Source: a virus. From it: a stretch of DNA of 64,000 bases. Below are positions 2,828 to 34,802 of the stretch, piece after piece; within the stretch, counting starts at the first letter, position 1, and every line of letters starts with the position of its first letter. The notes under the pieces were generated by a model, which was not told the origin of the DNA, did no database searches, and worked only from the letters and a program-made list of their open reading frames with translations. The position numbers and the translations under genes are program-made. The stretch is from IMG/VR virus record IMGVR_UViG_3300045988_154248. One strand, 5' to 3'.

Positions 2828-3181
2828 ATGGCAAATAACAGAGTATGCCTTACTTGTGGTAAGGCTTATGAGTATTGCGGATATTGTCCTACGAGCAAGA
2901 ATCTCCCGATGTGGATGAATCTGTTTGATACAGAAAATTGCAAAAATGTTTTTGAAACTGTAAGCGATTACGCTCAAGGTGCAATAAGTAAAGAAATAGC
3001 AGCTACAAATCTATCATTGTGTGATTTATCAAAAGTTTCTACCTACAAGGAAAATATCAAAAAACTTGTATCAGAAATTATTGATAATAAGAATGATAAA
3101 AAAGTTACTGCGACTAAAAAAAGAGAACAAGCTGTAAAGATTGTTCCAAAATCTAAAGTGAATAAAAATAGTGTTGATTGA
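2828..3181 (+). CDS. small Cys-rich (CxxC...CxxC) protein in the tail-chaperone position
   Basis: GGGAGA SD then ATG. The N-terminus CLTCGKAYEYCGYC is zinc-ribbon-like. Lies directly after the tube gene. Confidence 0.4.
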   Translation: MANNRVCLTCGKAYEYCGYCPTSKNLPMWMNLFDTENCKNVFETVSDYAQGAISKEIAATNLSLCDLSKVSTYKENIKKLVSEIIDNKNDKKVTATKKREQAVKIVPKSKVNKNSVD

Positions 3182-3193
3182 TATATGAGAATT

Positions 3194-3236
3194 ATAGGGG
3201 TACGTATATATCAATTATACGCACCCCTATTTTTTA
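3194..3236 (+). terminator. rho-independent terminator
   Basis: ATAGGGGTACGTATA / TATACGCACCCCTAT stem followed by a T-run. Confidence 0.7.
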
Positions 3237-3269
3237 CGCTTATATATCAGGAAGGAATAAAAGGAAAAA

Positions 3270-3455
3270 ATGAAGTTTGACAAAGAATACGCGACTTCTT
3301 TTGTTGACGAGTATAAATATCTAAAAGAATACGGTATTCGTTATGAATTCGTAAAGGTCGATGATACCGGAAAAACTGTTTGGAAATATAAAAAGACACC
3401 GGAATTATTTGAAGCATTGAAAAATTTTTACATCAACAATGAATATTATGATTAG
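3270..3455 (+). CDS. small conserved phage protein, paralog of 11110..11286
   Basis: MKFDKEY...YLKEYGI.YEFVK...KYKKTPELFEALKNFY aligns along its whole length with the intron-1 ORF MKKFDKEY...YLQSKGIEYSFVK...KYTKTPELFLALVSFY. Possibly DUF5659-like, from memory only. Confidence 0.5.
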   Translation: MKFDKEYATSFVDEYKYLKEYGIRYEFVKVDDTGKTVWKYKKTPELFEALKNFYINNEYYD

Positions 3456-3466
3456 CAGGTGTGACT

Positions 3467-10718: not shown

Positions 10719-11109
10719 TGCCTGTATGTACAGAAATGTGCATAAGAGAACACATCTAAAACCAGTAAAACCTAATGCTCTATCACTACAATATGGATGA
10801 AACATGCTGATATGAATGTAACGAAAGTAAAACAACGATAGAGATTCTATATGGTCAAAAGCCTAAGTAGAAATTTTGCTAATTATTTTAAATTAGAAAT
10901 GGTAGCTTGGTCGCAAAGTCCCGAATAGGGATGTGTCAAACGAGTACCCCAACGTCAGGGGGGAGAAATCCTTAATGTAGGGCTTAATCGCTAAATGAAG
11001 TCTGAAATGGTGTGACTGCTATTATTCTTAAGATGAATAATGTGGTTAAAAAGTACTCTGATCTTATATGCGAGTATAAGAATTATTATTGAAAAGAGAA
11101 TTTTATTTT

Positions 11110-11286
11110 ATGAAAAAATTTGATAAAGAATACAGTACTCAATACGTACCTGAGATGAAATATCTTCAATCAAAAGGTATTGAATATTCTTTTGTAAAAG
11201 ATATTCAAGGAGTGACGACATATAAATATACGAAGACACCAGAGTTATTTTTGGCTTTGGTGTCTTTTTATATGGAGAATAAATAA
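11110..11286 (+). CDS. small conserved phage protein, paralog of 3270..3455
   Basis: See 3270..3455. Located inside intervening sequence 1. Confidence 0.5.
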   Translation: MKKFDKEYSTQYVPEMKYLQSKGIEYSFVKDIQGVTTYKYTKTPELFLALVSFYMENK

Positions 11287-11319
11287 AAATACGAAAGGAT
11301 AAATAATAGGTGATAAATA

Positions 11320-12687
11320 ATGGCAAGACAAAAATATACATATGAACAAGTTTACAATGAATTTGACAAAAGAGGTTATGATTTAGTATCAGAAGAATAC
11401 CATAACGTTTCTGAACATCTGGAATATATCTGCAGAAAACATAAAGACAAAGGTATCCAGAAGATAACATTTTCAAAACTTCATTCAGTGAATAGAGGTT
11501 GTTATTATTGTGGTAGAGAACGAACTGAAAATGCGCATGTGAAAGAATTAGATCCTGAATATGACAAACAATTGTGTGAATCGAAAAATTTTACATATAT
11601 TGGATCGAGAAAAGAAAATCATATTTTTGTTATTGATTTTATTTGTAATAATCATAAAGATCTTGGGATTCAGTCTATGCGTCGCAATAATATGAAAAGG
11701 CAAATTAAAGGATGTCAGTATTGTTCAGGGAAAAATTTACCAGAATGGTATATTATGAAAAAGAAAGATGAAGTAAATCCAAATATTATATTAATTGATC
11801 CATATAAAAACATGACTACAAGAATGAAATGTCTTTGCAAGAAACATAATTTTTTGCATAATAAAACCATGCAGGAAATTTTAGGTGGAAAAGGTTGCTA
11901 TTATTGTGGTCTTGAAAAACTAAGTAAACAAATGTTTTTGTCAGATGATCAAGTCAATGAAAATATTCATAAGAAAAATCCACATGTTGATGTTATAAAA
12001 TATAATGGCGCAGATATTATTTCTGAATGGTACTGTAATAAGCACCAAAAATCATTCAGTAAGTGCTATGTTACTTTGCTTTATTGTGATAGTGGATGCG
12101 ATGAATGTTATAAAGAATTAATTAGAGATAGATATGGTTTGGGTCAGTTAGAGTTTAAGAAAAAAATAAAAGAAATTCATCCAACATTACAAGTTATAGG
12201 CAAATATATAAATAATACCACTCCAGTAGATTTATATTGTCAAAAACATGATTGTTATTTTTCAACAGATCCATCTTCTGCATACAAAAGATTATCTTGT
12301 TGTCCTAAATCTAGAGTCACTTATAAAGAAGAATATGTATGTAGTTTGTTAGAAAAATGGGGTTATTCTATTACTAGACAAAAGAAATTTGATGACTGTA
12401 AGGATAAAAACGTTCTTCCGTTTGATTGTTATTTAAATGATTTTAATGTATTGGTGGAATATGATGGAGAAGGGCATTACAAACCTGTAATGTTTGGAGA
12501 AGAATCCTATGAAGAAGCCGTAGAAAAATTTCATTATACGCAAAAACATGATCAAATGAAGAATGAATATTGTGAAGTAAATAATATTCCTCTTATTAGA
12601 ATTCCTTATTATGAGTTCGATGATGTAGAATATTATCTATATGATAATTTATGTAAACTTGGTGTTATAGAAGAAAATTTTCAATAA
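11320..12687 (+). CDS. intron-encoded endonuclease candidate (zinc-ribbon repeats plus Vsr/DUF559-like PD-(D/E)xK domain)
   Basis: Four to five repeats of the pattern C.KH......(G)C..C (CRKHKDKG...GCYYCG; CNNHKDLG...GCQYCSG; CKKHNF...GCYYCG; CNKHQKS...GCDEC; CQKHDC). C-terminal FDCYLNDFNVLVEYDGEGHY...NIPLIRIPY resembles Vsr-like nucleases. Confidence 0.55.
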   Translation: MARQKYTYEQVYNEFDKRGYDLVSEEYHNVSEHLEYICRKHKDKGIQKITFSKLHSVNRGCYYCGRERTENAHVKELDPEYDKQLCESKNFTYIGSRKENHIFVIDFICNNHKDLGIQSMRRNNMKRQIKGCQYCSGKNLPEWYIMKKKDEVNPNIILIDPYKNMTTRMKCLCKKHNFLHNKTMQEILGGKGCYYCGLEKLSKQMFLSDDQVNENIHKKNPHVDVIKYNGADIISEWYCNKHQKSFSKCYVTLLYCDSGCDECYKELIRDRYGLGQLEFKKKIKEIHPTLQVIGKYINNTTPVDLYCQKHDCYFSTDPSSAYKRLSCCPKSRVTYKEEYVCSLLEKWGYSITRQKKFDDCKDKNVLPFDCYLNDFNVLVEYDGEGHYKPVMFGEESYEEAVEKFHYTQKHDQMKNEYCEVNNIPLIRIPYYEFDDVEYYLYDNLCKLGVIEENFQ

Positions 12688-12747
12688 TAATTGGTATAGC
12701 TTTAAGCGAGGGCTATATTAACAAAAGAAATATGAAGTGTAACTGAG

Positions 12748-13083
12748 TTGATCGCCGGTAAAAATCAAGGCAATGTAATGAGCGCCCTTATGAGCCAGTA
12801 CGATATTGCTCGTCAAGCGCTTAATACTGCTATGAATGATTCCGAAGGCTCCGCCGAAAGGGAATTAACTAATTACCAAAAGGGTATCGATTACAGTCTT
12901 GAAAGATTCAAGGCTACATTTCAAGAATTTTCAACTTCTGTTCTATCATCAGACACTTTCAAGGCTGTCATAGATAGCGGAACACAATTCTTAGAAATTC
13001 TTACTAAAATTACTGAAACACTTGGGCCACTTGGCACAGCTTTAACAGCACTTGGTGGTTTCAAATTTATATCAAGCATAGGT
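12748..13083 (+). CDS. tail tape-measure protein, coding segment 2 of 4
   Basis: LIAGKNQGNVMSALMSQYDIARQALNTAMNDSEGSAERELTNYQ is the canonical continuation of the TMP core. No SD or credible start of its own. Confidence 0.7.
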
Positions 13084-13904
13084 TAGCCAAAATCCTGGCT
13101 ATAGTTTATCGTAAACTGGCTTATCAATGCGGAGAATATCATAGCAATGGAATGATATTTCAACGTAGGGAGATTAGTGCTTGTAAAAAATAAATAGAGG
13201 ATTAATTCGTCGAATTCGCTATTCTGCAATAATGCAGTGAAATGGATGAAAATTCCGCGAGAACGCACGAGCCAACCTGACTACGTATAGTAATATGTGA
13301 AACGTTAGCAGCAATTATGGAATTAAAGATAATATCATAATGACGAGCGAAACATATGAAAGTTAGGAGGAGTAGAGAGAACACCCTTCCTCCAGCGTAT
13401 ATAATGCCATAGTTTATATGCGTTGAATGCATGTTCCACGGTACGCGAAAGTTGTGATGCTTTCTCATCACACGCCAGCTTCTATCCTATTTCTGGCGTT
13501 GTTGGAAAATAATAGGAAAATTATATAGATATTTATCGTCAAATTACAATAACAATGGGGGATGTGAAAGTATGGGATCTAAATCTAAATTAGTATTTGA
13601 AACATTAGAATCTGATCCAGATGGTATTATTGATGCAAGCGAGCAAATATTAAATGTTCAAGGTACTCAGTTTTTACCGTTTACCTGAAATGTGCCAGTA
13701 AACATTGCATTGAGGAGAGTATGGAAATACAACTTCCCAGCACTCTCCTCTTCCACTTCTATAACATTTTCAACAAAAATGCCACAAAGAATAACAACGC
13801 TATCGCCCACCAGGGCCATGGCTGCATACTTCTTCTGACTCTACCTTTCCATGACATATCTTTTATTTTTTCCTTTGTCTAAAAATAAGTTTTAATGAAA
13901 GCAG

Positions 13905-14228
13905 GTGATTATTATCAATATTCAGCAAACAGCAAACAAGATAGAAACAAGAATTGTGTCTTCAGATAAATTAAATTCACAAAATATGTCATATGTATAT
14001 ATTGATTCAGATAATCAAATATATGTACGAGAAGGAATACTGCAGAATGATATTGATATATTATCTGCTGTATTAATGCAAAGAAAAGTCGATAGTCGTA
14101 TTAAAAAAACATATTTTGATATTGTAGACTCATTGAAAACGAATCAAGTATCTAAAAATCAATTTGAGTCTCTATATAAGATGGTTCTTGTAAAATATTA
14201 TGGTAAGAATGAAGAAAGTACATTGTAG
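13905..14228 (+). CDS. small protein convergent with protease 1 (MIIINIQQTANK N-terminus)
   Basis: 107-aa ORF behind an AGCAGGTGAT SD. Its first ~12 codons and 5' flank are repeated at 14887-14923. The 3' end overlaps the protease ORF by 31 nt. Confidence 0.4.
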   Translation: MIIINIQQTANKIETRIVSSDKLNSQNMSYVYIDSDNQIYVREGILQNDIDILSAVLMQRKVDSRIKKTYFDIVDSLKTNQVSKNQFESLYKMVLVKYYGKNEESTL

Positions 14229-14866
14229 TTTTCGCATTCTCCAAGACCAACTTCTTTTTCTTTATATGAATAGCTTGATTGTTCAATCCCTACTAAATAA
14301 TATTGGCTATCACGATTAATAAATATCGGTGATCCGCTTGATCCACTAAAGCATTCCATATCCACAAGGAAACGTTCCAATCCATTAAATTTTGATTTTA
14401 GAGGTGTCGCAATAACGCCACTTCGAATAAGTGGAGTGATAAAATTATCAGACTGAAATGATAACGGATATCCAATCATTAACGCATATTCAATTGAAGA
14501 TATTGGAAAATCTTCCGTTATAATATCTTCTTTTGTAATCCAAGATATTTTTAGCTTTCCTACATATTCTGGTGAATCGATTAGATCATTTATTCCAATT
14601 ACTGCAACGTCATATTGTGGATGTAAATATGGTTGGATACGTATTTCATTGTTTAGAAGATTCACTTGATCGTTTTGCTCAATAGGGACAGAAAACAAAG
14701 CGTTTTTCATATTCTCAAATATATGCCTATTCGAGACTAATGCATAATTTTCTCGATTATTTGCATGGTATTTATAGAAAAATCCTGTACCAATTTTACA
14801 TTCATCATTTTCTTTTAATACAGTAATTTTTGTTACAGTATGAATCAAATTCTCTTTTGTAAGCAT
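14198..14866 (-). CDS. trypsin-like (S1/chymotrypsin-fold) serine protease 1
   Basis: AAGGAGAAG SD. His in LVSNRHIF, Asp in YDVAVIGI, Ser in FSGSSGSPIF (GxSGxP). Confidence 0.7.
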   Translation of the reverse strand: MLTKENLIHTVTKITVLKENDECKIGTGFFYKYHANNRENYALVSNRHIFENMKNALFSVPIEQNDQVNLLNNEIRIQPYLHPQYDVAVIGINDLIDSPEYVGKLKISWITKEDIITEDFPISSIEYALMIGYPLSFQSDNFITPLIRSGVIATPLKSKFNGLERFLVDMECFSGSSGSPIFINRDSQYYLVGIEQSSYSYKEKEVGLGECENYNVLSSFLP

Positions 14867-14894
14867 ATTTTACTTCTCCTTAATTAGAAAGCAG

Positions 14895-15236
14895 GTGATT
14901 ATTATCAATCAAACAGCAAACAAAACAGATCATCAGGAATCTATACAAACAATACACACAATAGAATTAACCACTAATGAGTATAATACAATCAAATATT
15001 TTTTTGAAAATATGGAGTCTTTATATAACTATGGACTGATTGATAAGGAAATTGTCCCATATAAAATTTTCTCCAATGCAAAAAATCATTTTATGAAAAA
15101 GCCAAAAATTACAATTACTAATTTAAAAATGACAAAAGCTTCAGATACTATTACTCATCTAGTTTGTGGTGATCAAAGTGTTAAATCTGTTTATCAAATA
15201 GCTACTTCTCCGTCACAAGAGGATATTGTTCTCTAA
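14895..15236 (+). CDS. small protein convergent with protease 2 (MIIINQTANK N-terminus)
   Basis: 113-aa ORF behind the same AGCAGGTGAT SD repeat. Overlaps the protease 2 ORF by 35 nt. Confidence 0.4.
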   Translation: MIIINQTANKTDHQESIQTIHTIELTTNEYNTIKYFFENMESLYNYGLIDKEIVPYKIFSNAKNHFMKKPKITITNLKMTKASDTITHLVCGDQSVKSVYQIATSPSQEDIVL

Positions 15237-15936
15237 TAAAATCAAGTATATAAAACGCATATACTTCCTGAGAAAGACCAAGACTTTCTTCATACTTCTT
15301 TTCAAATTCGTCTGTAGTAATTTTAAGAGAACGTATTTTAGCAGAATGATGTATGCCAAGTAGTTTGTATTTTTCATTAACTTTGATATAAACTGGGCAT
15401 CCACTTAAACCTTCTTTGGTATTGGCATAAGTGAAGAATCCGTTTTGAAAGTTGAACTGAATAGATGATGCAGTATTTCCTTTAATAATAAAAGGATACG
15501 CTAAGATTGTGTACCCTAATGCTGCTTGATAGCCAACGAGATAGACATCTTCCAAATCATTAAAACTTGATCTGTCATCATTTAAAATAATGTCTGATTC
15601 TTCTATAAAATGAAAAATTATATTGTATTTATTCAAGGCCTTGATTATTGTATTTGTTATATCGACATAGGCGATATCAAGAGAAGGATGTTTTATAGGA
15701 GAGACAGTTATATTAAAAGTTATACCTGACATTTCTTCGTTTTCGTCTATAGTGGATATAACAAAAGATATATTCATAATATTTTTGTCAAAACAATGAC
15801 CGCAAGAACAAAGGAAATATGATTCTCCTTGAGATGTTGCTAATTTTATGATAAAACCAGTAAAAGAGTGTCTTGGTTCTTCAGTATTATCAGCAATAAA
15901 TACTGTTGTATATTTCAAGTCATTTACACTAATCAT
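15202..15936 (-). CDS. trypsin-like (S1/chymotrypsin-fold) serine protease 2
   Basis: GAGAGGAAAA SD. His in SCGHCF, Asp in LDIAYVDI, Ser in EGLSGCPVY. Confidence 0.65.
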   Translation of the reverse strand: MISVNDLKYTTVFIADNTEEPRHSFTGFIIKLATSQGESYFLCSCGHCFDKNIMNISFVISTIDENEEMSGITFNITVSPIKHPSLDIAYVDITNTIIKALNKYNIIFHFIEESDIILNDDRSSFNDLEDVYLVGYQAALGYTILAYPFIIKGNTASSIQFNFQNGFFTYANTKEGLSGCPVYIKVNEKYKLLGIHHSAKIRSLKITTDEFEKKYEESLGLSQEVYAFYILDFIREQYPLVTEK

Positions 15937-15969
15937 ATCAATTTTCCTCTCTTATGTTTTATGGTTATC

Positions 15970-16533
15970 TTAAAAATCATACCCACAATTCTTACAGTGA
16001 AATTGTTTGCCGATTTTCTCTGATGCAATGCCAAACATATTTGTAGACAGCATACGTTTGAATATACCGATTTTCTCGATATTTGTAGATTGACACACTG
16101 GACAGTGAGGTTGGTTGGCAGATGTTGGATTTTGATAGTTGTTCTTTTCTCTATATTGTTTTAACCGCTCTTCTTCTTCATGACGTCTTTTGTTATATGC
16201 ATTCTCATCAAATTGATTTTCCACATTAAGATCTTTTAGGTCATTAAGAATGCTTTCTTTGTCACACCCGTGATGATTTAACAAATCTACCATTTCATAC
16301 TTAGTTTGTATAAATGGAACGCGACAATATTTACAGTTAACTCTTCTACAATGACCAGCATAATTAATTTCATGAACCCCACATCTCGGACAGATAAAAC
16401 CTCTAGTAAAATCATTAATATTATTTTCTTCTAGATATTTTTTGATTGGTCGTCCACAATGAGGACAAGTTTCAGCATAGATGCTAACTTCTCTATCACA
16501 ATCTGGGCAATATATCAAATTTTGAAATCCCAT
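15970..16533 (-). CDS. multi-zinc-ribbon protein
   Basis: GGAGGA SD then ATG 16533. Four CxxC pairs (CPDC..CPHC, CPRC..CKYC, CPVC..CKNC) separated by an acidic/basic linker. Confidence 0.55.
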   Translation of the reverse strand: MGFQNLIYCPDCDREVSIYAETCPHCGRPIKKYLEENNINDFTRGFICPRCGVHEINYAGHCRRVNCKYCRVPFIQTKYEMVDLLNHHGCDKESILNDLKDLNVENQFDENAYNKRRHEEEERLKQYREKNNYQNPTSANQPHCPVCQSTNIEKIGIFKRMLSTNMFGIASEKIGKQFHCKNCGYDF

Positions 16534-16620
16534 ATTACATCCTCCAATGCACATTAAATTAATTACATTATATCATAATTATTATATAAATCCAACATTA
16601 TACAATAATTTTATTCGCAG

Positions 16621-19600
16621 TTAAAAAATTTAGGTGATTTATTTGGTAGTTTTGGAGAATTAAACTTACTGAGAAATAAATATGGAAAAAACGCAACATT
16701 TGATACATTAAGCAGTACACTACAACAGTCTTTTAACGAGTCTTTTAAAGTTGGGAAAAATGGAATTAGTGAATTTTCCACAGAGCAAATTAAAACTAAA
16801 GCATCTGTAATGGGATTAAATGATGCGTTGACAAAACAAGCATTATCTCTTGCGAATGACGCTGGTTTATATCAAAAAGCTGCGGCAGGTAATCTTACAT
16901 TTAGTAAGGCTATAGAATTAAATATAAATAATGCAAGCGATTTAGTTGATGCCTTGATGAGTAGTAATTCTGAAGTCTTAAAAAAATATAAAGATAACGA
17001 TATTGCTGATATGATAGCTAATTCAGGTGAAAAAGGCAGCGCGGCATATAATGAGTTTGTTAAAGATCTCATCGATAAAAATCAAGATTTAGGGGACTCA
17101 ATCGTTGAATTAGCACCCAAAGTAGAAACTACAAAATCCGCATTTTCTGGTTTATCAAACTATTTTAAAGGACTTTTTGCTACATTTACAAATCCGATTT
17201 TCCTTTTAACGACAGCCGTTACCGTAGGGGTTGCGGCATGGCAAGGCTATAACCAATCTGTCCAGGAATCCATCCAGCACACGAAAGACTCAATAGCAGA
17301 AATAGAGGAACGTAATAAGTCTATTGACGACAATATCAGTAAAGCACAGGAACTAAGGGATTCCCTTGATTCCGGTACTCTTACAGAGCAAGAAGCTTAT
17401 AACACGAAGAGTCAATTGCTTGATATCCAAAGTCAATTATCTGATTCTTATGGAGAACAGGCGGATGGAATTGATCTGGTAAATGGTAAGCTGGATGAGC
17501 AGATCGAGAAGATGCAGCAGCTCAAAGTTGAAAATGCGAAAAGCTGGCTGAATGATTCGGATAATGAGAAGAATTACGAAAAAGCTAAGAAGAAGATGAC
17601 CAAAGATGATTATGAGTCATTCTTTGGAAATACACCTACTTTATCTTTACTTGGTAATGCACCAGAAAAAGCCGACTATACAAATTCAGACGTATATAAA
17701 GATGCACTGAAACGTTATCAAAATAGCAAATCCCAGATCGAAGAAATCCAGAAAGCAGCAGAAAAAGCCGGACTAAAACAGTATACAAGTACAAGCACAG
17801 GTCAGTTCCAGCTTGGTTTTGAAAATGAAACAGTAACAGGAGCAGATGAAAAATTAAACTCCTTCCTCGCTACTGTTAAAGAACTGAAACGGCAGTTTGA
17901 TGATGAGGGTAAAAATACTGATTACTTTGATAATATCATCAGTTCCGCCGAAGATGCCGAATCTTCTTATAAGGATATTTTAGACAAGCATCAAGAAGTA
18001 TATCAAGAGTATCTGAAAAACTCCATGCTTGCAGAGGGTTATGGTAATAATAAGCCAGCCACAGTATACCAGCAATATGCGGATGCTGTAGATAAATATA
18101 ATGAAGCCCTGCAAAGTGGAGATACATCTAAGGTCGAAGCAGCGAAAACTGCATTAGATGGCGTAAAAGATTCCGTAGATAATATTGTCAGTAGAGATTC
18201 CGGAAAAAAATACAAGGAACTGTTTGATGAGATTGCAGATGGTATTGACACAGCATCCGAAAAAACTTATGAGTTCAAAGAACGCTTATCCGGTAAAGGT
18301 ACAGATAAATTAAACAATACTGTGCTTTCTAAGCTCAAAGAGTTGAAGAATTACACAGATATTGACCTCAAGAGTATCAATCTTGATACAAGTGATGTTG
18401 TTGCTGGTAAAGATGCTCTACGCATGGCAGTAAACGAAGCAATGGATCTTGACATTGTTTCCGATGATTCTGCTGAAAGTGTGGCAAAAGTTGTTGATCT
18501 CTTAACGGATATGGGTATGACGGCAACCGTATCCATGAATCAAGTGGATGATTCCTTCTCAGAAGTCAATACTACCATTCAGCAAGCACAAGCAAATCTG
18601 GAAACGCTCAAGACGATTATGTCTGAATCTGTTTCGGGAGCAGGTATTTCTGCCGATAATGTGAAAGCATTTAAAGAAATGTTCGGAGATGATGCTGCGC
18701 GTGCTTTGGAGAAAACCGCAGACGGTTACCATATCAATCGTGAAGAGCTTGCAAAATTACAGGCGCAACAGTCAGAAATGAACAAAGCGGATTATCTTTC
18801 CGGTTTGGCAGATCAGCAGGAAGCTCTGAGACAAATCGAGGAGCAGATCGCCGATGCAATGGTAAAAGGTCAAGATGTCAGCGGCTTACAGGCACAGCGC
18901 GAAGGTATTTTGGATAATATTTCCTCTCTGGAGGATCTAGCATATCAGTATCAAACTGCTACTTCTGCTTATCAACAATGGCAGGATGCTATGTCCGGTG
19001 GTGAAGAAGGTAATATGTATGATTCCATCCAGGGTAACATGGAATCCATCAAAGATCTCTACGACAAAGGACTTGTGGGAGAAAACAAATTCCGAGAGTT
19101 TGTTGACCTTATGTCCAATAAGGATCTGACCAATGCCAGTGTGGATGAAATCGTTGCGGCTTATGAAGAATCCTATCCGAAGATGGAACGTTATTTTACA
19201 GAAGGACAGGAAGGATGTCAAGCATTCTTACAAGATATATCCAACCTTAATTCTGAATGGGCGCACATGAATGAAGATGGTTCATGGGAGATTAATTTCG
19301 GAGTCGGAAACGATCAAGAGATTGCGGATGCATTAGGAATTGATGTGGAAGCTGTACAATCAGTACTAAGAAAACTGCATGATTTTGGCTTTGACATCGA
19401 CCTCGATCAGCCGGTTAAATCTTTGGAACAACTAAAGACAGAAGCTCAATCAGCCAAAGAAGCTCTTGATGGAATGGGTGAAACTTCTCTTGATAGCATC
19501 AATTTGGACACAGATTCATTCAGTGAAATCACAGATGATATTGACAAGGTTAAGGAATATATTCAGCAGATCAATGATGCTGATTTGGAGCCAGAAGTTC

Positions 19601-22492
19601 GGACAGAGAGACTGGAGCAAGCCAATAATATTCTTGATTATCTGGTACAGAAACAGCAAGAGGCTGGACATACAGATATTATCATTGATGCGGATGCAAG
19701 TTCTGTCGATCAAAAGATCTCTGATCTGAAGAGTCAACTGGAGCAATTCAGAAACGAAGACGGTACGATTCCTGTTAATGCCGATACACAAGATGCTGTC
19801 AACAGTCTGCAATCTTTGTATGCTACGAAGCAAAATCTTGAAAATACACCAGCTATTCTACAGGTTGATACTTCGCAGGTTGACGGAGAACTGGGCAATG
19901 CGATCGGAAAATTACAGGAATATCAGAATGCTGTAGAGATTCTGAATGCACAGAACACGATGAAAACACAGGGCATCGACATTGATACCACAGATGCACA
20001 GCAGAAAGTACAACAGTTGGCAGGACAGCTACAGAATCTTGATGCTGATACGACAGCAAAGTTAGGTCTTGACGATACTGATTTTCAGTCGAAACTTTCT
20101 AATATTGCTACTCATCCGATTGATGTAGGAATAGGGGTAAATCTTGATCCGAATGCTCTTGCCGACGTCTCTGCAAAGATTTCTGGAATTACGCCAGAAT
20201 TACTTGTAAAAGCTGGTGTAAACGAAGAGGCGATTGTAAATTATACGCCGAAAGATAAGGACGCTACGGTCAAATACAAAGTTGACCATAGTGCGATTGA
20301 CAGTTATGATCCGGAAGACAAAAATGCTACGGTTACTTACGGTGTGGTTGTTTCTGGACTTGAAAATCTACCAGGTAATAAAACAAGAAGTCTGACTTAC
20401 AATATTAAGACTAATGGTACGGCTCCAAAAGTAAATGGTACGGCACATGCTATAGGAACAGCTCATGCGGCAGGTACTGCAAGCCGTAATTGGGGGCTTG
20501 CTCACAATGAACCACATGCGCTTGTAAATGAATTGAAACCAGAAGCAATCGTTCGGGATGGTAAGGCGTTTATCTTGAATGGCGGAGATCCTACTTTTGC
20601 AAATCTGAAGAAAGATGATGTTGTATTCAACGGTGATCAGACGGAGCAGTTGCTTGAACATGGTTATGTTACCGGTTCTCATGCACAACTTGCAGGTGGT
20701 GGTTATTCTTTAGGTAGTGCGTTCTCTGGAGGATCGGGAAGATTTAATGTTGGAAGTTCTGGAACAAAAGCTGATTCTTCCACATGGGAAGACGAAAAGA
20801 AACAGAATAATACCAGCCCTAACTCATCTTCTGGTAGCAGTAGTCGTAAAAACAGTGGATCATCTTCTGGTGGTTCAACTCGATCACCTTCCGGTGGAAG
20901 TTCTGGTGGCTCTTCATCCTCTTCTGATGCAAAGTCAACAACAGAAGAAGTAGTTGATTTTATCAAAATTATGCTCTCCCGTCTGTCCCGTATGACAGAG
21001 CTTGCAACTAATGCAATCGAACGTGCAGTAGGTCTTGCAAATAAACAAGCAGCCGCAGCAGATGCAATCGGTAAAGCAACGAATGAAATGGTTCATAACC
21101 AACGTGCAGCAGATGCTTATTTGGCAAAAGCTAATAGCATTAGTTTGTCTGATGCTTATAAGAACCAGATCATGAATGGTAGTATTAATATAGATACCAT
21201 CACAGATGAAGATCTGAAAAAGAAAATTAGTGACTTCCAAAGCTATTATGAATCTTACTTATCTGCAAGAGACAATGCGTTAAAGCTCGAAGATAAAATT
21301 ACCGAACTCGCTGAAAAACGTCTGGAAATCATTGAAAAAGAATATGATGCGATCGTAGACATCAACGATGCGATAAAAACCGTAGCCGATTCCAAAATTT
21401 CTCTCAACGATGCGCTGGGCGTGGCGATTGACAATCCAGACAATTATGCTAATCTGAATAATTCAATCAAAGCACAGGAAGATACTTATAATCAGCTGAC
21501 GAAAAAGCTTTCCGATTATCAGAAAGAGATGGAGTCTCAACTTTCCAGCGGCTTGATGCAAAAGGGTTCTGATGCCTATAATTCTGCGCTAAAAAATATT
21601 CAAGATTTTACAGCTAAGATTTATGATGCTTCTACCAGCCTTCTTGAACTACGGGATAAATTGGATCAGATTAAAATTGATACTATCCAGAATGTAATTG
21701 ACGGAATCAAACGTAATTCGGATATTACGGAGAAATATATTTCTTACCTGCAATCTCAGAATCGTGATGTGCCAGAGAATCTATACACTGACCGTATAGA
21801 TAATAATAACGCTCAGGTACAGCAGAATCTAAAGCAGATGGAAATATACCGGAAGAAACAGGCGGTTCTTGATGTCAATTCTAAATCGTATCAAGATTAT
21901 GCAGAAAAGATTCAAACGCTAAAAGAAAATACTTTGGAACTGATTACGGACAATGAATCTCTTCAAGATAGTATCTATGAGCTACGATTTAAGCCACTTG
22001 ACGATGCTATCCAGAAGTACAGTGACCTTGAAGATGAGCTGAAAAGTTTCCGTGACCTTCTGAATGATGATGCATTCCTTGATAAGCAAGGACGTATCAC
22101 GGAAGATGGATTGGCACAGATTGCTCTCTTACAACAGAGTATTGGTACGGCAAAACAAAAAATTGCAGATTATACCACGGGCCTGCAAAAACTAAAAGAG
22201 TCTTATGACAATGGGGTTATTTCCTTAACGGAATATAATGACAAGTCAAAAGATTACCGTGAAGGTATTCAAGGTTCGATTGCAGATGTGAAATCATATC
22301 AGGACAGTCTGGTTGATCTGTATAAGAATGCTATGAGTACAGAGGTTGATTATCTAACCTCTATTGTAACGAAGAGACAAGAGGCGCTTCAAGCAAAAGC
22401 TGACTATTATTCCTATGATAAATCAATATCCAAAAAGAGCAATGATATTAATGTTATTAAAGCACAAATCATGGCTTTAGAAGGGGTGAAAT
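16621..22492 (+). CDS. tail tape-measure protein, coding segment 3 of 4
   Basis: The frame is open from 16609, upstream of the listed Met at 16810, and has no SD. Long coiled-coil with one TM-like segment (IFLLTTAVTVGVAAW), a Gly/Ser-rich stretch (20790-20930) and a conserved LVNELKPEAIVRDGKAFILNGGD block. The 3' boundary is approximate. Confidence 0.7.
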
Positions 22493-23075
22493 ATTTGCTC
22501 CTATAAAATCTATTTAATTGCGGGAAGTCCCCATAAGGTTTAATTGGCTACAACGTAACCAGAAACGGTAGGCGTGAATGCGGTAGAGTTTTAAACTTAC
22601 AGTCCATTATTAGATAGAAACCATAAAAATAATTAAACTAGGGATAACCGAGTGTGCAAGTCACTCAGACGCAGCGAACTTCCTAAGTCAGAAATGATAT
22701 GGAAGACGTTCAGAGACTAACCCATATTGGGTGGCGCAATGCCTTAATGGAAGACTGCAAGCGATTGGCGGTCGAAAAAATATAGACTATTTGAATATTA
22801 AGTGATATTATAATTTTGAGGTGTGTTCTTTCCTATAATTAGTGATGAACAGATAGAACACAGTGTAGATACAACCAAAGAGACTCTCGAACACACATAT
22901 GAGAGAAGTAAGTAGAAGAAAAGACAACGAAATAGAACAATAAAGAAGATTGTGCAAGTTTGTAGAAGTTATACGAACCATCGTTCGCATGTTTGTGAAT
23001 TTTGCGAATAGATTTTTCTCTTGGGATTGCATATAATAAAGTCAAGAAAACCGTAAAGTTTTCTTATAATTAGTG

Positions 23076-23174
23076 GTTACGAAGCCATAAAATCGTATTA
23101 ATAGATGTTACGAAGCATGTAAAAAATCGTATTAATAGATGTTACGAAGCATGTAAAAAATCGTATTAATAGCG
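23076..23174 (+). ncRNA. ToxI/antiQ-like antitoxin RNA: three tandem 31/34/34-nt repeats
   Basis: GTTACGAAGC(C/ATG)...AAAATCGTATTAATAGAT repeated head-to-tail at 23076-23106, 23107-23140 and 23141-23174, immediately upstream of the ToxN-like gene. Confidence 0.7.
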
Positions 23175-23197
23175 GAGCTGGTTACAGCTCCTTTATT
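23174..23197 (+). terminator. terminator between the antitoxin repeats and the toxin gene
   Basis: GGAGCTG-GTTA-CAGCTCC hairpin then TTTATT. This is the position of the attenuating terminator in toxIN/abiQ loci. Confidence 0.6.
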
Positions 23198-23213
23198 ACT
23201 ATTAGGAGAAAAT

Positions 23214-23774
23214 ATGAAGTGGATTAATGTAGACGAAAAGTATACAGATTATCTTAGAAGTCACGAAGGAAGAATTCCTATGACCAATTATGGCACAGAT
23301 AAATACAAGCCATTTTTCGGTGTGCTGTTTGAAACAAATGGTTTGTATTATATTACACAGGTATCACATCCACGGGAAAAACATAAACGCTTGACACAAC
23401 AAAAAGATTTTTACAAAATATTTGATCCAGATAATACAACAAGATTAATAGCGGTTGTTAATCTTAATTACATGTTCCCAATTCCAAAAGAATGTACAAG
23501 TGCATTTGTTAAAAAGAATATAGGAACATATCGTACATTTAAATCAGAGAAAGCAAAAAGTCAATATATTAATTTGCTTGATAAAGAATTAAAAGTAATC
23601 AATAAAATGGATTTAGGAACAAAAGCATTGCAGTTGTATCATTTAAAATATACAGATCCTAACAGTACCGTTTCAAAAAGATGTATTGATTTTAAGGATA
23701 TGGAAAAATGGGCAAAGTTATATATTGAAACGTTAAATAATACAGAAACTACAGAACAACCCAAGGAGCAGTAA
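23214..23774 (+). CDS. toxN: ToxN/AbiQ-family type III toxin (endoribonuclease)
   Basis: MKWINVDEKYTDYLRSHEGRIP...KPFFGVLFETNGLYYITQVSHPREKH...IAVVNLNYMFPIP aligns with ToxN as I recall it: MKFYTISSKYIEYLKEFDDKVP...KAFIGIVLEIQGHKYLAPLTSPKKWH...LGLINLKFMIPI. AGGAGAA SD. Confidence 0.8.
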   Translation: MKWINVDEKYTDYLRSHEGRIPMTNYGTDKYKPFFGVLFETNGLYYITQVSHPREKHKRLTQQKDFYKIFDPDNTTRLIAVVNLNYMFPIPKECTSAFVKKNIGTYRTFKSEKAKSQYINLLDKELKVINKMDLGTKALQLYHLKYTDPNSTVSKRCIDFKDMEKWAKLYIETLNNTETTEQPKEQ

Positions 23775-23928
23775 ATCTACTGCTCTTTTCTTATACCTCA
23801 AATCTTAATTACAATCCCTCAAATAAAATTCAAATAGAAGATATAGTCCCATGCCATACGAAAGTATGGGGAGCAGTTATGCTCTTGTCCACGTAGCGAG
23901 TGGATGAAAAGAAAATGAAATAACCTCG

Positions 23929-25409
23929 ATGCTCAATCTCAAGTTAAGAAATTGAAGCAACAGCTTTCAGAAGCAGAGCAAGATTTAGCCGATACTAAGC
24001 GTGACCATGCAAATGATATGCAGTCTCAAGGTTACGATAAGCTCAGTGAAGATCTGAAAACTTCTCTTGATGATACCGAGTACGAAATTAGTCATAATGC
24101 TGACAAACAGCTTGAGATCATCAATTCTATGCTTGACAAAGCCGTGTCCTCTTATCAAGAAGCATATGGCAAAATCAACTCTATCATCAAAAATACTGGC
24201 TGGGTAGGTAGTACGGATTTTAACAATACCCAGTCTGATCTAAGCACAGAGACAGGTGTTAAGAATCAAAATTCCAACGCATCACAGTCTCAGTCCAGTG
24301 CAAATAAAAATCCATCCAGTACCGCATCTGGTACAAAAACTGATCCAATCAACAGTAATTCAAAAGCAAACAGTGATCTTGCGGATCAATTAGTTAAACC
24401 GGAAGATACAACGAATCGTAAGGTTGCGGAACTAAAGGTGTCTCCTACTTCTACTACACTGAAAGAGGGTAAATCCACAAGTATTACTGCTACAATCAGA
24501 CCGAACGATGCAGCTAATAAGACTCTTGCTTGGAAATCAAGTAATGAATCCATTGCTACTGTATCCAATGGTACGGTAAAAGCAAAGAAAGCAGGTTCCT
24601 GCACGATCACTGCTACTACTACTGACGGCAGCGGTTTATCTGCGAAAGTATCTGTTAAAGTCAATGCGAAACCAAAACCACCAAAGCCACAGCCGAAACC
24701 ACAACCAGCAAAAACTGGTGGAGATGGAATTCCTCGTGTTGGCGATGTCGTAACGTTCACAGGATCTTATTATAATGATTCCTGGGGTATGGCTCCAAAA
24801 GGTAGTAGATTTTCCGGTCAGCCTGGTGCTGTTGTTATTGACTCTTACACGGCTAGGGAATATGGCGGAAATGGACGTACTACTGGTGATTTTAAGATCC
24901 ATATCAAGAGTGCGCATGATCCTAATTATAGTGATCTTGGATGGGTGCGTCTTAGCCAGATTAGTGGTTATGAAAAGGGTACGGATCGTATTCATGGTGA
25001 TCAGCTTGTATGGACAAATGAAAATAAAGACACCAAACATCATGGCGTTTCAGAATTAATCTATCGCAAGAAAGATGGTGCTGTCCTTACACCTGTTCAA
25101 GATGGAGATTCTATTCTACCAGCAGATTTTGTAAGTAATTTGATTAAATTAAGTGCAATTGATCCTAAAGAATTCGGTATGAATGTAAGTACTACGCCAA
25201 ATCTGGTACAGACGAACATTCCTCAAAATATCAGCAATGTTGGAAATGTAACGGTAAAAAATCATTATGATTCATTACTCACAGTTGAAGGTAATGTTGA
25301 TAGGGATGCTCTGCCTGGATTACAGGAAATTCTTGAAAAGTCTTATCAGTATACAAGTAAACAGATCGTGAAAGATGCAAGAAAAGTTGGTATTAGACCA
25401 TCAAGATGA
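23929..25409 (+). CDS. tail tape-measure protein, coding segment 4 of 4
   Basis: The frame is open from 23919 with no SD. A coiled coil continues, then a Big_2-like Ig domain (VSPTSTTLKEGKSTSITATIRPNDAANKTLAWKSSNESIATV), a PKP linker and a C-terminal block typical of TMP ends. The 5' boundary is approximate. Confidence 0.7.
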
Positions 25410-32447: not shown

Positions 32448-32933
32448 ATGGCAAGTGATAAAATGTTAGGTAGTTTTGATCAAAAATCTGCACCAGAAGA
32501 TAATGATCTTTTGGTAGAATACGATGCTGCTGCATCGAAAGTTAAGAATGTGAAGTTCGGAGGTGTGTGGAACTGGATAGTTAAGAAATTGACATCCGCC
32601 GTAATTAATGAGTTACAAACATCAAGTAAGAATGTAGTGGGGGCTATTAATGAATTAAATAGTAAGAAAGCGATTTGCACCACTGGTTGGGAAAACGGTA
32701 ATGCAAAATCTATTTTTGAAATATTTTCGCCAACTTCTCCAAATGGTATTTATAGTTATTATAATATTAAAGATATTCCATTTTATCATTCTCCTACAGA
32801 TGCCTATGTAACAATAATAAAAGGACATGAGTTAATTATTGCTTTTAATGAACAGAGTATTTTTATAACAGGAAGTTCAAGAAATACATGGACAAAGGAA
32901 TGGCATTCTATCAAGCTTGGTATCCTATCTTAA
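32448..32933 (+). CDS. tail fibre / receptor-binding protein: constant N-terminus (to 32666) fused to the currently expressed variable cassette V1
   Basis: AAGGAGG SD then ATG. Constant part ...VVGAINELNSK ends exactly in the crossover motif AAATAGTAAG (32657-32666). V1 (32667-32933) ends ...RNTWTKEWHSIKLGILS. Confidence 0.75.
   Translation: MASDKMLGSFDQKSAPEDNDLLVEYDAAASKVKNVKFGGVWNWIVKKLTSAVINELQTSSKNVVGAINELNSKKAICTTGWENGNAKSIFEIFSPTSPNGIYSYYNIKDIPFYHSPTDAYVTIIKGHELIIAFNEQSIFITGSSRNTWTKEWHSIKLGILS
32657..32666 (+). repeat. crossover site 1 (end of the constant region)
   Basis: gaaTTAAATAGTAAGaaa, read as L-N-S-K in the fibre frame. Confidence 0.7.
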
Positions 32934-32941
32934 ATAGTAAG
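32932..32941 (+). repeat. crossover site 2 (direct orientation, head of cassette V2)
   Basis: tatCTTAAATAGTAAGaca. It supplies the TAA stop of V1 and, in the +1 frame, N-S-K of V2. Confidence 0.7.
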
Positions 32942-33664
32942 ACATTATTACATAATGCAGGTGGTCATAACTCTATCTTCAGAGGTAAGAACTTAGGTAC
33001 ATCTTACACATCTGCGATGTCTAAGGCTATTCAGGCGGGTACATTTGATGACCTGTATGTAGGTGATTACCTTACAATCAACGGTACTGTATATCGAATC
33101 GCTGGATTCAATCTTGGAAAACAGATTGGAGGCAACGCATCTATGGGTAACTGCATGTGCCTCGTTCCTGACTCTGCTCTGTATAGCGCACAGATGCACA
33201 ATACGGATAGTGGTCAGTATACAGAAGGTTCTGCTGCAAATACAACAACCGGTGCATATGCAAATTCTGATATGAGAACCACCAACCTTGCACAGGCAAC
33301 TCAGAAGATTGTGAACGACTTCGGTTCTACTCATGTAATGTCTTACAGAGATATCCTGCCGAACGCAACCGCTAACGGACAGGCTTCTGGATGGGCTTGG
33401 TATGACTGTAAAGTTGAACTGATGTCTGAGGTTATGGTGTACGGAACAACTGTATGGGCTAATAGCGGATATGAAGTTGGATGTATCAACTCTCAGCTCC
33501 CACTGTTCGCTCTCGCTCCTGAATATATTCACCGTCGCTTCGTCTATTGGCTCCGTGGTGTTGGGAGTGCGACTTCCTTCGCTTCTGTGAGCAACGCCGG
33601 TTATGCGACCAACACCAACGCTTCTTTTTCTTATGGTGTTCGTCCGTTTTTCTTCGTTAATTAA
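32932..33664 (+). CDS. silent fibre C-terminal cassette V2 (244 aa, lectin-like)
   Basis: The in-frame N-S-K entry (LNSKTLLHNAGG...) has no SD; the Met at 32888 lies inside V1. The C-terminus ...YWLRGVGSATSFASVSNAGYATNTNASFSYGVRPFFFVN resembles the WLRS...GVRP signature of DUF6273-type domains, from memory. Confidence 0.6.
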
Positions 33665-33803
33665 GATTTTTACGTGCATAGAAACGGGAATAATAGCTAT
33701 TGACTGCGGATTTAATTGGTTTATATTTTTCAAGTATTTGATGAGAGAATATGGGAATGTGGTAATAGAAATTGCCAAAATTTCCCAAGGAGGTAGGTTA
33801 ATA

Positions 33804-34802
33804 TTGACAAAATTAGAAAATATTCTCGAGCAAATACTTGAAAAATTACAGGATAGCTTAACGCATGAACAGCTTTCGGAATTAGAAAGCACTATGGTTA
33901 TTGCATTCCACGGAATCGAGGTACAAGAAGAACACACTCAGTTAGTAACATCAGAGCGTACATGGGAGAAGATTCTTCGGATGTATTGTGCCGCAAAGCG
34001 TGTTGAAAATTGCTCCGAAAGAACTATTAAAGGTTACAGTCGATGCATTATTCAGTTTTTCACGCAGATCAACAAGAAAATAAATAACATAACTACGAAT
34101 GATATTAGATATTATTTGGCATTTTTTCAAGAAACGCATCATACTTCTATTGTATATCTTGATAACATACGTAGGTATCTTAATTCATTTTTTACATGGG
34201 CTGCGGATGAAGGATATATACAATCAAATCCTATGCGAAAACTCAAGAAAATGAGAGTACCTACTAAACTTAAAAAAACATTTTCAGCAGCAGAGATGGA
34301 AGAACTTCGTTGCAGTGCAAACTCTCAGAGAGATATTGCAATTATGGAATTTTTATATTGTACTGCTACTCGTATTGGAGAGGCAGTTAGCGTTAATCGC
34401 TCGGATATTGATTGGCAAAGAAAAGAATTAATTGTTTATGGAGAAAAGGGCAAGAAAGAACGTACTGTTTATTTGACAGATCGCTGCATTTATCATCTTA
34501 AAAAATATCTTGATGAAAGAAAAGATACAAATGAAGCTTTATTTGTATCCTCAAAATCTCCACATAAGCGACTTGGAGTTCAGGCAATTCAGTCTATGTT
34601 GGCAGCGTTAGGTAAAAAGACAAATATTCACGTACATGCTCATAAATTTCGAAGGACGTTACTTACGGATGCAGGAAAACGTGGTATGCCATTACAAGAG
34701 ATTCAGGTCTATGCAGGACACGCCAAGCCAGATACAACGATGCAATATGTAATGGTTCAACAAGAACGTGTTAAATCGAATTTTATGAAAAATATTGCAT
34801 AA
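33804..34802 (+). CDS. tyrosine recombinase (XerC/D-Rci-like), candidate shufflon invertase
   Basis: CAAGGAGGT SD then TTG 33804. Core-binding domain (ERTIKGYSRCIIQFF...YLNSFFTWAADEGYIQSNP). Catalytic residues: ATRIGE (Arg), HKFRRT (HxxR), GHAKPDTTMQY (His...Tyr). Confidence 0.8.
   Translation: MTKLENILEQILEKLQDSLTHEQLSELESTMVIAFHGIEVQEEHTQLVTSERTWEKILRMYCAAKRVENCSERTIKGYSRCIIQFFTQINKKINNITTNDIRYYLAFFQETHHTSIVYLDNIRRYLNSFFTWAADEGYIQSNPMRKLKKMRVPTKLKKTFSAAEMEELRCSANSQRDIAIMEFLYCTATRIGEAVSVNRSDIDWQRKELIVYGEKGKKERTVYLTDRCIYHLKKYLDERKDTNEALFVSSKSPHKRLGVQAIQSMLAALGKKTNIHVHAHKFRRTLLTDAGKRGMPLQEIQVYAGHAKPDTTMQYVMVQQERVKSNFMKNIA

Follow-up and report, generated by a model that had tools for sequence, protein, structure and literature searches.

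Why should a phage carry a type III toxin–antitoxin (TA) locus within the gene for its tape-measure protein, in a slot that related phages fill with a homing endonuclease? The question is raised by a stretch of viral DNA of 64,000 nucleotides (nt) (IMG/VR record IMGVR_UViG_3300045988_154248; the whole stretch is called the window below), in which a preliminary description, made from the letters alone, had placed a complete module resembling ToxIN and AbiQ inside a group I intron. The cargo of phage group I introns is usually thought of as homing endonucleases (transposases in IStrons), and type III TA systems are usually thought of as abortive-infection modules of hosts and plasmids. The answer that we consider probable is that the window holds a phage-carried ToxIN cassette in the P8 loop of a self-splicing tape-measure intron, where it would serve abortive infection, exclusion or counter-defence.

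The intron and its splice sites

As shown in Table 1, the tape-measure gene is divided into two exons by what its sequence and covariation identify as a group I (IA2-like) intron, and removal of this intron restores a colinear protein. The predicted splice product is in frame, with 2389 codons and one terminal stop, and aligns gap-free to uninterrupted tape-measure homologues (P0121, P0122, P0145, P0156, P0199 and others); at the junction it reads IKAQIMALEGV followed by NNLDAQSQVKKLKQQL, where the homologues read IKAQIAALEGSNNLADQARLKKLKQDL. At its true beginning, exon 2 lacks a start codon preceded by a Shine-Dalgarno sequence. The 5' splice site is placed after U22487 and the terminal G at position 23917 because both P1 and P10 change with the exon across related loci (loci are given by L numbers). 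The P1 guide tracks the exon in L014 (UCGGU↓G/UGCCGA; the arrow marks the splice site), L002 (CUUGGU↓G/CGCUAAG) and L026 (AGGUGU/GCACCU), with a U-G wobble at the splice site in these three loci and the window, that is, in four exon contexts; P10 covaries too (AAAUA/UAUUU in the window, UGAAA/UUUCA in L002, AAUAAU/AUUAUU in L026), and the 3' splice context of L088 is that of L002. The 3' end of the intron and the placement of its omega-G presumably resemble the end of the phage Twort intron (...GUAGCGAAAGCUGCAAGAGAAUG).

The ribozyme core was examined with RNAalifold on ten introns from which the cargo had been deleted; 101 consensus pairs were obtained, 30 of them with compensatory changes, and P1, P6, P7, the hairpin after P3', P8, P9, P9a and P9b were recovered, with compensatory pairs in each of the last three helices. 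All 10 introns have the same P7 pairing, GACUA/UAGUC (3' strand at 23844-23848); the assignment of P3 and P4 was made by eye alone. In a short-range search with the Rfam family Intron_gpI (RF00028), positions 23761-23870 matched J8/7-P7'-P9 (GAAGAUAUAGUCC...; 27.6 bits, E 1.4e-4) and positions 22478-22810 gave a second partial match, to P1 through P7 (GUUCAGAGACUA; 19.7 bits, E 0.034), the match being split because a 1-kb insertion sits in P8; the sister introns of L014 and L015 score 37.8 bits (E 3e-6) and 29.8 bits. A whole-window Rfam search at an E-value threshold returned no group I match.

The boundaries first given for the intron, 22493-23928, were corrected to those of Table 1 on the grounds of P1, P10, omega-G and the gap-free homologue alignment: the earlier segment keeps the frame but lacks P1/P10 support, and its product is 2 amino acids (aa) shorter than the homologues. 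The J8/7-like segment AAAAAAUAUAGACUA (22776-22790), which the second Rfam alignment uses, was also considered as the true J8/7-P7', where its UAGAC would leave an A-A mismatch with P7; it was rejected because the covarying stem that encloses the cargo comes after it and the real AAGAUAUAGUCC lies at 23838-23849. It is extremely improbable that the segment is no intron at all, namely an intergenic accessory island between two tail genes whose ribozyme-like motifs are chance or relics. The unmet Rfam gathering score, the internal terminators, which are awkward for a transcribed intron, and L027, where a free-standing ToxIN separates a tape-measure stop from the next tail gene, would suit such an island; however, the uninterrupted homologues cross the junction without a gap, P1 and P10 follow the exon in four contexts, the core holds 30 compensatory pairs and exon 2 lacks a start of its own, so that the original placement of the module in a group I intron stands.

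Position of the cargo within the ribozyme

The preliminary description put the cargo downstream of the ribozyme core. The structural alignment instead locates the cassette inside the core, in the P8 loop, between the P7 5' strand/P3' and J8/7-P7'-P9. The P8 stem consists of ten base pairs (22787-22796 with 23828-23837), lies immediately 5' of J8/7 and encloses the cargo, its identity as P8 being assigned by position; the stem as extended by the inner complementary segments has a folding energy of -23.6 kcal/mol. The P8 sequence in L014 and L021 is CUGUUUAUUA/UAAUAAACAG, which amounts to 5 compensatory pairs relative to the window. These two loci share with the window the tape-measure site, the core and the P8 loop, in which they carry an open reading frame (ORF) of 499 aa (L014) or 427 aa (L021); the former matches HNH, homing-endonuclease and 'intron encoded nuclease' families (phrog_559, E 3.5e-48; phrog_9084; phrog_7140) and the latter is its homologue, in keeping with the earlier statement that a homing endonuclease normally occupies this slot. 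Among 80 other IA2-like phage introns, recognised by a J8/7...GUAGCGA pattern, there was either no ORF or an endonuclease-like ORF; toxin cargo was found only in the present tape-measure intron lineage. A minus-strand ORF of 74 aa (22808-23032), with a similar version in L017, L022 and L025, also lies in the intron leader, after P8 and before the promoter of the cassette.

Table 1. Positions of the intron, its cassette and the alternative cargos of sister loci
Feature	Locus	Position	Strand	Remarks
Tape-measure upstream exon	window	16810-22487	+	open frame continues to a stop at 22504-22506 inside the intron
Predicted group I (IA2-like) intron	window	22488-23917	+	1430 nt; 5' splice site after U22487; terminal G (omega-G) = G23917 (AAAAUG↓AAAUAAC)
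Tape-measure downstream exon	window	23918-25409	+	coiled coil, Big_2 domain, C-terminal domain (ORF list, PHROGs, junction alignment)
Predicted ligated exon junction	window	22487↓23918		...GAAGGGGT to AAATAACCTCG...; also written ...GCTTTAGAAGGGGT↓AAATAACCTCGATGCT...
P1	window	22483-22501	+	GGGGU↓G (22483-22488) with UGCUCC (22496-22501); U22487-G22497 wobble at the splice site
P10	window	22492-22496 with 23918-23922	+	loop bases UAUUU with first exon-2 bases AAAUA
J6/7 and P7 5' strand	window	22708-22719	+	GUUCAGAGACUA; GACUA at 22715-22719; aligns to Rfam group I consensus
Hairpin between P3' and P8	window	22753-22773	+	GACUGC-AAGCGAUUG-GCGGUC; compensatory changes at 4/7 pairs
P8 5' strand with inner extensions	window	22787-22822	+	CUAUUUGAAU (22787-22796), then AUUAAG, UUUGAGG; opens the cargo loop
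Promoter-like element and 5' hairpin	window	23027-23065	+	ATTGCATATAAT with TATAAT at 23032-23037; hairpin AAGAAAAC...GUUUUCUU at 23044-23065, -6.2 kcal/mol
Putative ToxI antitoxin RNA array	window	23071-23172	+	units 23071-23101 (31 nt), 23102-23135 and 23136-23169 (34 nt, identical), and a partial unit
Predicted intrinsic terminator/attenuator between ToxI and toxN	window	23174-23198	+	GGAGCTG-GTTA-CAGCTCC then TTTATT (scan match 23174-23191)
Shine-Dalgarno sequence	window	23204-23208	+	AGGAG, 5 nt before the toxN ATG; read from sequence
toxN ORF	window	23214-23774	+	186 aa, ATG start; ToxN/AbiQ-family endoribonuclease toxin by family match
Predicted second terminator	window	23763-23795	+	hairpin and U-run; overlaps the toxN stop codon; fold -14.2 kcal/mol
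P8 3' strand	window	23828-23837	+	AUUCAAAUAG; Rfam alignment, pair counts
J8/7 and P7 3' strand	window	23838-23849	+	AAGAUAUAGUCC; Rfam alignment, pair counts
P9, P9a, P9b and tail	window	23850-23917	+	P9 CAUAC-GAAA-GUAUG; P9a GAGCA/UGCUC; P9b UGUCCAC-GUAGCGA-GUGGAUG; tail to G23917
HNH endonuclease cargo	L014, L021
NYN RNase cargo	L015, L024	~3017-3792		203 aa; Pfam NYN E 1.3e-13; PADLOC HEC-09 E 7e-18
PBECR4 nuclease cargo	L016, L018, L019, L020, L023, L026			Pfam E 2.4e-20
TenpN-like type III toxin cargo, 172 aa	L017, L022			NCBIfam NF047358 E 1.4e-19, under equivalog cut-off
TenpN-like toxin cargo, 156 aa	L013	106-576		NCBIfam NF047358 E 1.1e-7, under equivalog cut-off
Composite intron, endonuclease and ToxIN	L009	7703-10718
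Composite intron, endonuclease and TenpN-like cassette	L025	1027-4001

The ToxIN cassette

Every sequence hallmark by which a complete type III locus of the ToxIN/AbiQ type is recognised is present in the cassette, on the sense strand and in the order promoter-like TATAAT, 5' hairpin, ToxI repeats, attenuator terminator, Shine-Dalgarno sequence, toxN and second terminator. The first reading of the module as complete is further supported by about 50 homologous loci that share its layout and repeat family. The assignment of the 186-aa ORF to ToxN/AbiQ was confirmed by a profile search, in which its product matches Pfam ToxN_toxin (PF13958) with 147.3 bits (cut-off 25; E 5.8e-43) over the full profile (1-159 of 159); the PADLOC AbiQ profile also matches it (E 5.5e-21). 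Among PDB sequences, 4ATO, 2XD0 and 7D8O are the sole meaningful matches, and phmmer gives E 3.5e-8 for 4ATO and E 1e-6 for 2XD0 among the solved ToxN structures. There are 376 homologues at E < 1e-5, with Lachnospiraceae predominating, and an identical protein has been deposited at NCBI as 'Toxin ToxN / AbiQ' from uncultivated phages (UVX82473.1, DAO81412.1). The gene product is intact and widespread, since the exact protein is indexed in 270 blocks of a collection of public assemblies. By sequence alignment, the TSPK motif of Pectobacterium ToxN corresponds to SHPR, with His at the Ser53 position; in a sequence alignment of the 13-member ToxN clade, S51 is invariant and H52 nearly so.

ToxN, TenpN-like and PBECR4 cargos all keep the promoter-like element and 5' hairpin ahead of them, and free-standing ToxIN loci have similar ones. 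The GGAGCTG/CAGCTCC terminator, the Shine-Dalgarno sequence and the 186-aa ORF follow one another as first described; the terminator folds at -16.7 kcal/mol, its position is also kept in L002, L027 and L030, and the terminator scan found 2 terminators where 0.8 were expected. The second terminator is common to the non-endonuclease cargos checked (ToxN, TenpN-like, PBECR4), and in L016 and L017 the sequence is conserved from about 23755-23764 on.

The three head-to-tail repeats of 31, 34 and 34 nt were likewise recovered: Tandem Repeats Finder reports 23076-23172 with a period of 34, 2.9 copies and a score of 137, with 100% identity over 2.5 copies. The ToxIN locus of Bacillus thuringiensis likewise has 2.9 copies of 34 nt. 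For comparison, 61 ToxN loci fetched from species genomes were combined with metagenomic loci, giving about 58 distinct regions upstream of toxN; about 50 of these contain a tandem array with a period of 32-35 nt and 2-3.4 copies (6.1 in one locus), which ends 36-80 nt before toxN, and the ToxN identity of these loci is 39-100%. The family consensus is TAGAGGTTACGAAGCCTAYCAAAATCGTATTAA. When 108 distinct units were aligned, two interleaved helices were seen, AGGU/GCCU and, inside the loop of the first, UACGA/UCGUA, which together form an H-type pseudoknot: 90.6% of cells are paired, 79 are double-change cells and double changes occur at 6 of the 9 pairs, whereas slid registers are 29-55% paired and none of 500 shuffles reaches the observed value. 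Unit 1 of the window is a UGG...CCA variant, and units 2 and 3 are AUG...CAU variants. On this covariation, which bears out the proposed relation to ToxI RNA, the window repeats belong to a genuine, pseudoknotted ToxI family.

The same repeats bear on the main rival of the favoured role, an anti-defence decoy, in which phage ToxI would be selected to keep a host-encoded ToxN inhibited after host transcription is shut off, toxN having merely been co-captured. The Pectobacterium phage PhiTE reportedly escapes ToxIN via ToxI-like repeats (Blower and colleagues, in 2012). The ToxI family is highly conserved across hosts, the 34-nt unit of the window matching unit 3 of L030 exactly and differing from the L034 unit by one base although the ToxNs are 66-74% identical; ToxIN of this clade is common in genomes of Lachnospiraceae and Clostridia (61 loci), and the phage gives no clear sign of lysogeny. 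A pure decoy, however, would be expected to lose its toxin, and in many independent assemblies toxN keeps its full length, undisrupted and almost without change, and it persists in three diverged intron lineages, and other cargos keep intact nuclease ORFs as well; a decoy is thus regarded as unlikely, and phage-carried abortive infection or exclusion of competitors is favoured.

Alternative cargos in the same slot

The survey of the intron in related phages that had been proposed was carried out on 14 sister loci, obtained from viral contigs with the exon-2 protein as query, whose exons are 57-98% identical. No intron-less copy of this site was found among the 14 loci of the close phage group, and the cargo varies between conserved flanks, the 5' core up to about 22800 and the 3' part from about 23764. 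It can be seen from Table 1 that HNH endonuclease, NYN RNase, PBECR4 nuclease and two TenpN-like toxins occupy the position that ToxIN holds in the window; the uniqueness implied by the preliminary description does not hold, since sister phages hold other RNase toxin cassettes and free-standing ToxIN lies beside tape-measure genes elsewhere. HEC-09, matched by the NYN cargo, is a candidate defence gene, and in L015 and L024 a good extended -10 promoter, a short leader and a terminator-like hairpin come before this cargo. For the 172-aa cargo, hhalign against the ToxN profile gave a probability of 0.6% and PDB sequences no match, and the NCBIfam search then identified it as TenpN-like; it lies at 3140-3844 in L017 (it is also present in L022 and L025), and the leader in L017, of about 130 nt, ends in a terminator.

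The non-endonuclease cargos have a common layout: the promoter-like ATTGCATATAAT or an equivalent, a 5' hairpin in most, a non-coding leader of 90-250 nt, a terminator hairpin with U-run, a Shine-Dalgarno sequence and then the ORF. Direct or tandem repeats were looked for upstream of the NYN, PBECR4 and TenpN-like cargos and none were found, the ToxN versions alone having them; a type III antitoxin without repeats would be out of the ordinary. In the PBECR4 cargo the leader corresponds to the 'drum' RNA of Rfam (RF02958), at 3083-3189 in L016 (71 bits) and 3022-3130 in L026 (51.8 bits; gathering score 43), where it fills the slot equivalent to 23040-23200 of the window, directly upstream of the terminator, the Shine-Dalgarno sequence and the PBECR4 ORF. 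The drum motif is an orphan, for which its discoverers pointed out a 3' terminator and a 'compelling association' with a protein close by (PMC5737381). This type III TA-like layout suggests that drum RNA may be the RNA partner or antitoxin of the PBECR4 nuclease.

In L009 and L025 the endonuclease and a toxin cassette travel together. These composite introns begin with a 5' core of the L014 type, the 499-aa HNH endonuclease and a first J8/7-P7'-P9, continue with a cassette of the window type and close with another J8/7-P7'-P9 and the 3' splice site. Since RNase cassettes turn over between near-identical flanks, the site appears to be a conflict locus, which points to phage-carried abortive infection, exclusion or counter-defence. 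A more general proposal is advanced tentatively, with rather less than even confidence: the P8 loop would be an exchangeable slot for cassettes of structured RNA, terminator and RNase toxin, of at least five kinds (ToxIN, two TenpN-like toxins, drum RNA with PBECR4, NYN/HEC-09), which would act as phage weapons or counter-weapons and be mobilised by endonuclease-bearing or composite sister introns. If this is true, drum RNA with PBECR4 would be a new type III-like TA family, and some TenpN-like toxins would use non-repetitive RNA antitoxins.

Cargo turnover also bears on selfish addiction, in which the cassette would stabilise the intron or the genome that carries it with no defence benefit, loss being followed by death as the labile ToxI disappears before the stable ToxN. 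Type III and other TA systems can be post-segregational killing modules, as is established for ToxIN on plasmids, and none of the 14 loci of the close group lacks the intron. Post-segregational killing, however, needs dividing cells that lose a replicon, whereas in a lytic infection ToxI would act in trans on every genome in the cell; between identical flanks, one toxin type is quickly exchanged for another, which looks like diversifying selection rather than stabilisation, and homing with precise splicing explains the persistence of the intron more simply. Addiction is therefore considered quite unlikely, and a conflict function remains preferred.

Distribution of ToxIN and lifestyle of the phage

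Intron-borne ToxN occurs in three diverged lineages, with identities of 100%, 79% (L002-L006) and 59% (L088, Lachnospiraceae bacterium MD308), and at two different tape-measure target sites; for these reasons its association with introns is neither a one-off nor an assembly artefact. Free-standing ToxIN cassettes without an intron, with promoter, 5' hairpin, three ToxI units, terminator and toxN, were also observed at L027 5444-6614 and L030 5711-6646, the former exactly between the stop of a tape-measure-like ORF and a DUF6558 tail gene and the latter within a region of accessory genes; the free-standing copies of L027 and L031 belong to tail modules on contigs from bacterial genome assemblies. 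A megablast search of 22000-24500 against GenBank phages gave no match, and tblastn with ToxN gave one distant match only (a Clostridioides phage, 27% identity); a close copy is absent from 185,579 species genomes (GTDB), the relatives found there being no more than 70% identical.

Independent contigs that carry this phage cluster at about 200-209 kb, and the host of this gut phage of about 205 kb is probably a member of the Lachnospiraceae or related Clostridia. The window also encodes NrdD, an NAD-dependent ligase, an aminotransferase, a Tn7-like TniQ/transposase pair and an endolysin, and no lysogeny module was seen in its 64 kb. Its only tyrosine recombinase (33603-34802; Phage_integrase, E 1.3e-30) adjoins ORFs for tail-fibre tips (region 32448-34802), and among near-identical phages these ORFs vary in size and orientation (L007-L012, 19200-20561): the window has a minus-strand ORF of 314 aa, and L009 and L012 have a plus-strand ORF of 313 aa. 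To judge from this arrangement, the region resembles an invertible cassette for host range more than an integrase for lysogeny. An early assumption of a prophage with an integrase was withdrawn, the recombinase being invertase-like and a close copy being absent from the species genomes. Lysogeny is unsupported because of the NrdD, ligase and Tn7-like set, the contigs of about 205 kb, the recombinase beside the tail-fibre tips and the absence of a close genome copy, and a prophage is no likelier than a large, possibly virulent phage.

These features weigh on the proposal that the phage is temperate and the cassette a prophage-expressed 'moron' that protects lysogens by abortive infection. The promoter-like element and terminators of the cassette could permit expression independent of the late genes, free-standing copies occur in tail modules of contigs from bacterial assemblies (L027, L031) and one variant of the toxN product lies on a contig of 468 kb. 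Against this stand the missing lysogeny module, the resemblance of the recombinase to a tail-fibre invertase, the convergence of the contigs on about 205 kb and the lack of a close copy in GTDB species genomes, which make lysogen defence improbable; abortive infection or exclusion by a phage that need not be a prophage is preferred.

Two further regions of the window were noted. The Tn7-like set lies on the minus strand at 44391-48807, with TniQ at 44391-45875, an rve/Mu-transposase-C protein at 47074-48807 and a 401-aa ORF between them. Further interruptions of the tape-measure region lie upstream (7878-16810): 7878-10745 and 12748-13086 match consecutive parts of the phrog_4211 tape-measure profile (positions 239-832 and 837-942) and are separated by an HNH homing-endonuclease ORF at 11320-12687 (phrog_559, E 3.2e-51), which probably marks another intron; 13087-16809, ahead of the 1898-aa tape-measure ORF, holds ORFs on both strands. 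An Rfam search of 10500-17000 gave no group I match for these other tape-measure interruptions.

Proposed mechanism

By analogy with ToxIN of Pectobacterium and Bacillus thuringiensis and with AbiQ, the cassette would be transcribed from its own promoter, and the terminator would hold ToxI in excess over toxN mRNA. ToxN would cut the ToxI precursor at an A-rich stretch into 34-nt units, which would bind and inhibit it. If transcription of the cassette stopped or its RNA were degraded, labile ToxI would decay and ToxN would be freed; free ToxN would then cleave cellular and phage RNAs, and the infection would be aborted. Likely triggers would be a competing or superinfecting phage or a host response. 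Provided that splicing removes it, the intron would offer the cassette a cost-free site inside an essential late gene, and the sister and composite introns with homing endonucleases at the same target (L014, L009, L025) could spread it by homing-type repair. The biological role, whether abortive infection and competition, anti-defence or addiction, is what we infer from these arrangements.

Several points weigh against this account. Splicing, toxicity, neutralisation and the defence phenotype are all deduced from sequence. The RF00028 gathering score of 50 bits is not reached in the window, and a whole-window search at the gathering threshold returned nothing; a consensus promoter scan did not call the TATAAT element of the cassette, a good -35 being missing. 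Two sense-strand terminators within the intron should truncate the tape-measure pre-mRNA unless they are leaky or antiterminated, and cutting of the ToxI array by ToxN would sever exon 1 from exon 2 before splicing, although, speculatively, the long P8 stem might hold the cleaved halves together. The near-identity of the window ToxI unit to units that accompany ToxNs of 66-74% identity leaves room for an anti-defence role, and with lysogeny unsupported a classical lysogen-defence role may not apply.

Significance and comparison with known systems

The components belong to known families; what is new is their combination, together with the use of the loop as a multi-allelic slot for type III-like cassettes, so that novelty lies in the context and not in the toxN gene, whose protein has already been deposited. 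In the searched literature, one possibly relevant 2026 preprint aside, no TA or defence cassette in a group I intron was reported. If the reading is true, a ribozyme loop in an essential structural gene would be both a neutral parking place and an exchange hotspot for conflict genes, and a new route by which defence or toxin cassettes pass between phages. It would also pose a puzzle, since a pre-mRNA that needs splicing would contain an RNase toxin, the RNA which that toxin can cleave and two terminators; it would provide a natural allelic series, with the same flanks, five toxin types and presence or absence of a homing endonuclease, in which the benefit of such modules to a phage can be tested, and it would give the orphan drum RNA a testable function as partner of the PBECR4 nuclease.

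Like ToxIN of Pectobacterium atrosepticum (pECA1039) and Bacillus thuringiensis (pAW63) and AbiQ/antiQ of Lactococcus lactis, the cassette comprises a promoter-like element, tandem repeats (31-36 nt in those systems), a terminator and a toxin of the ToxN_toxin family, and its repeat RNA is predicted to be pseudoknotted as theirs is, here by covariation. Unlike those loci, which lie on a plasmid or chromosome, it is phage-borne and lies, in sense orientation, within a group I intron of an essential tail gene; its toxin has no more than distant similarity to the solved ToxNs (E 1e-6 to 3.5e-8 by phmmer), with SHPR in place of TSPK. Phage PhiTE, with its pseudo-ToxI, also carries ToxI-type repeats, but those antitoxin-like repeats come alone, with no toxin and outside an intron, whereas the toxin gene here is intact and conserved.

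As regards the intron, it is similar to the td/I-TevI intron of T4, the I-HmuI intron of SPO1 and the orf142 introns of Twort in its IA2-like core (GUUCAGAGACUA, AAGAUAUAGUCC), its place in an essential phage gene and its ORF in a peripheral loop, and its P9 region with a tail to the terminal G recalls that of Twort; it differs from them in that the cargo is a cassette of RNA antitoxin and RNase toxin with its own promoter-like element and two terminators, and the window copy, unlike endonuclease-bearing phage introns, encodes no mobility function. IStrons such as CdISt1 of Clostridioides difficile, group I introns fused to IS200/IS605 elements, are a precedent for bacterial group I introns that still splice with non-endonuclease cargo (see PMC10690162), but their transposase/TnpB cargo serves mobility, whereas the present cargo is a TA/defence-type cassette with no obvious mobility role. 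Finally, near-identical flanks around rapidly replaced defence-type cargo recall the defence hotspots of P2/P4-like prophages and satellites; unlike these hotspots, the slot described here is the loop of a ribozyme helix in a structural gene of a large, probably non-integrated phage, and each of its non-endonuclease cargos is an RNase-type toxin placed behind a non-coding RNA and a terminator.

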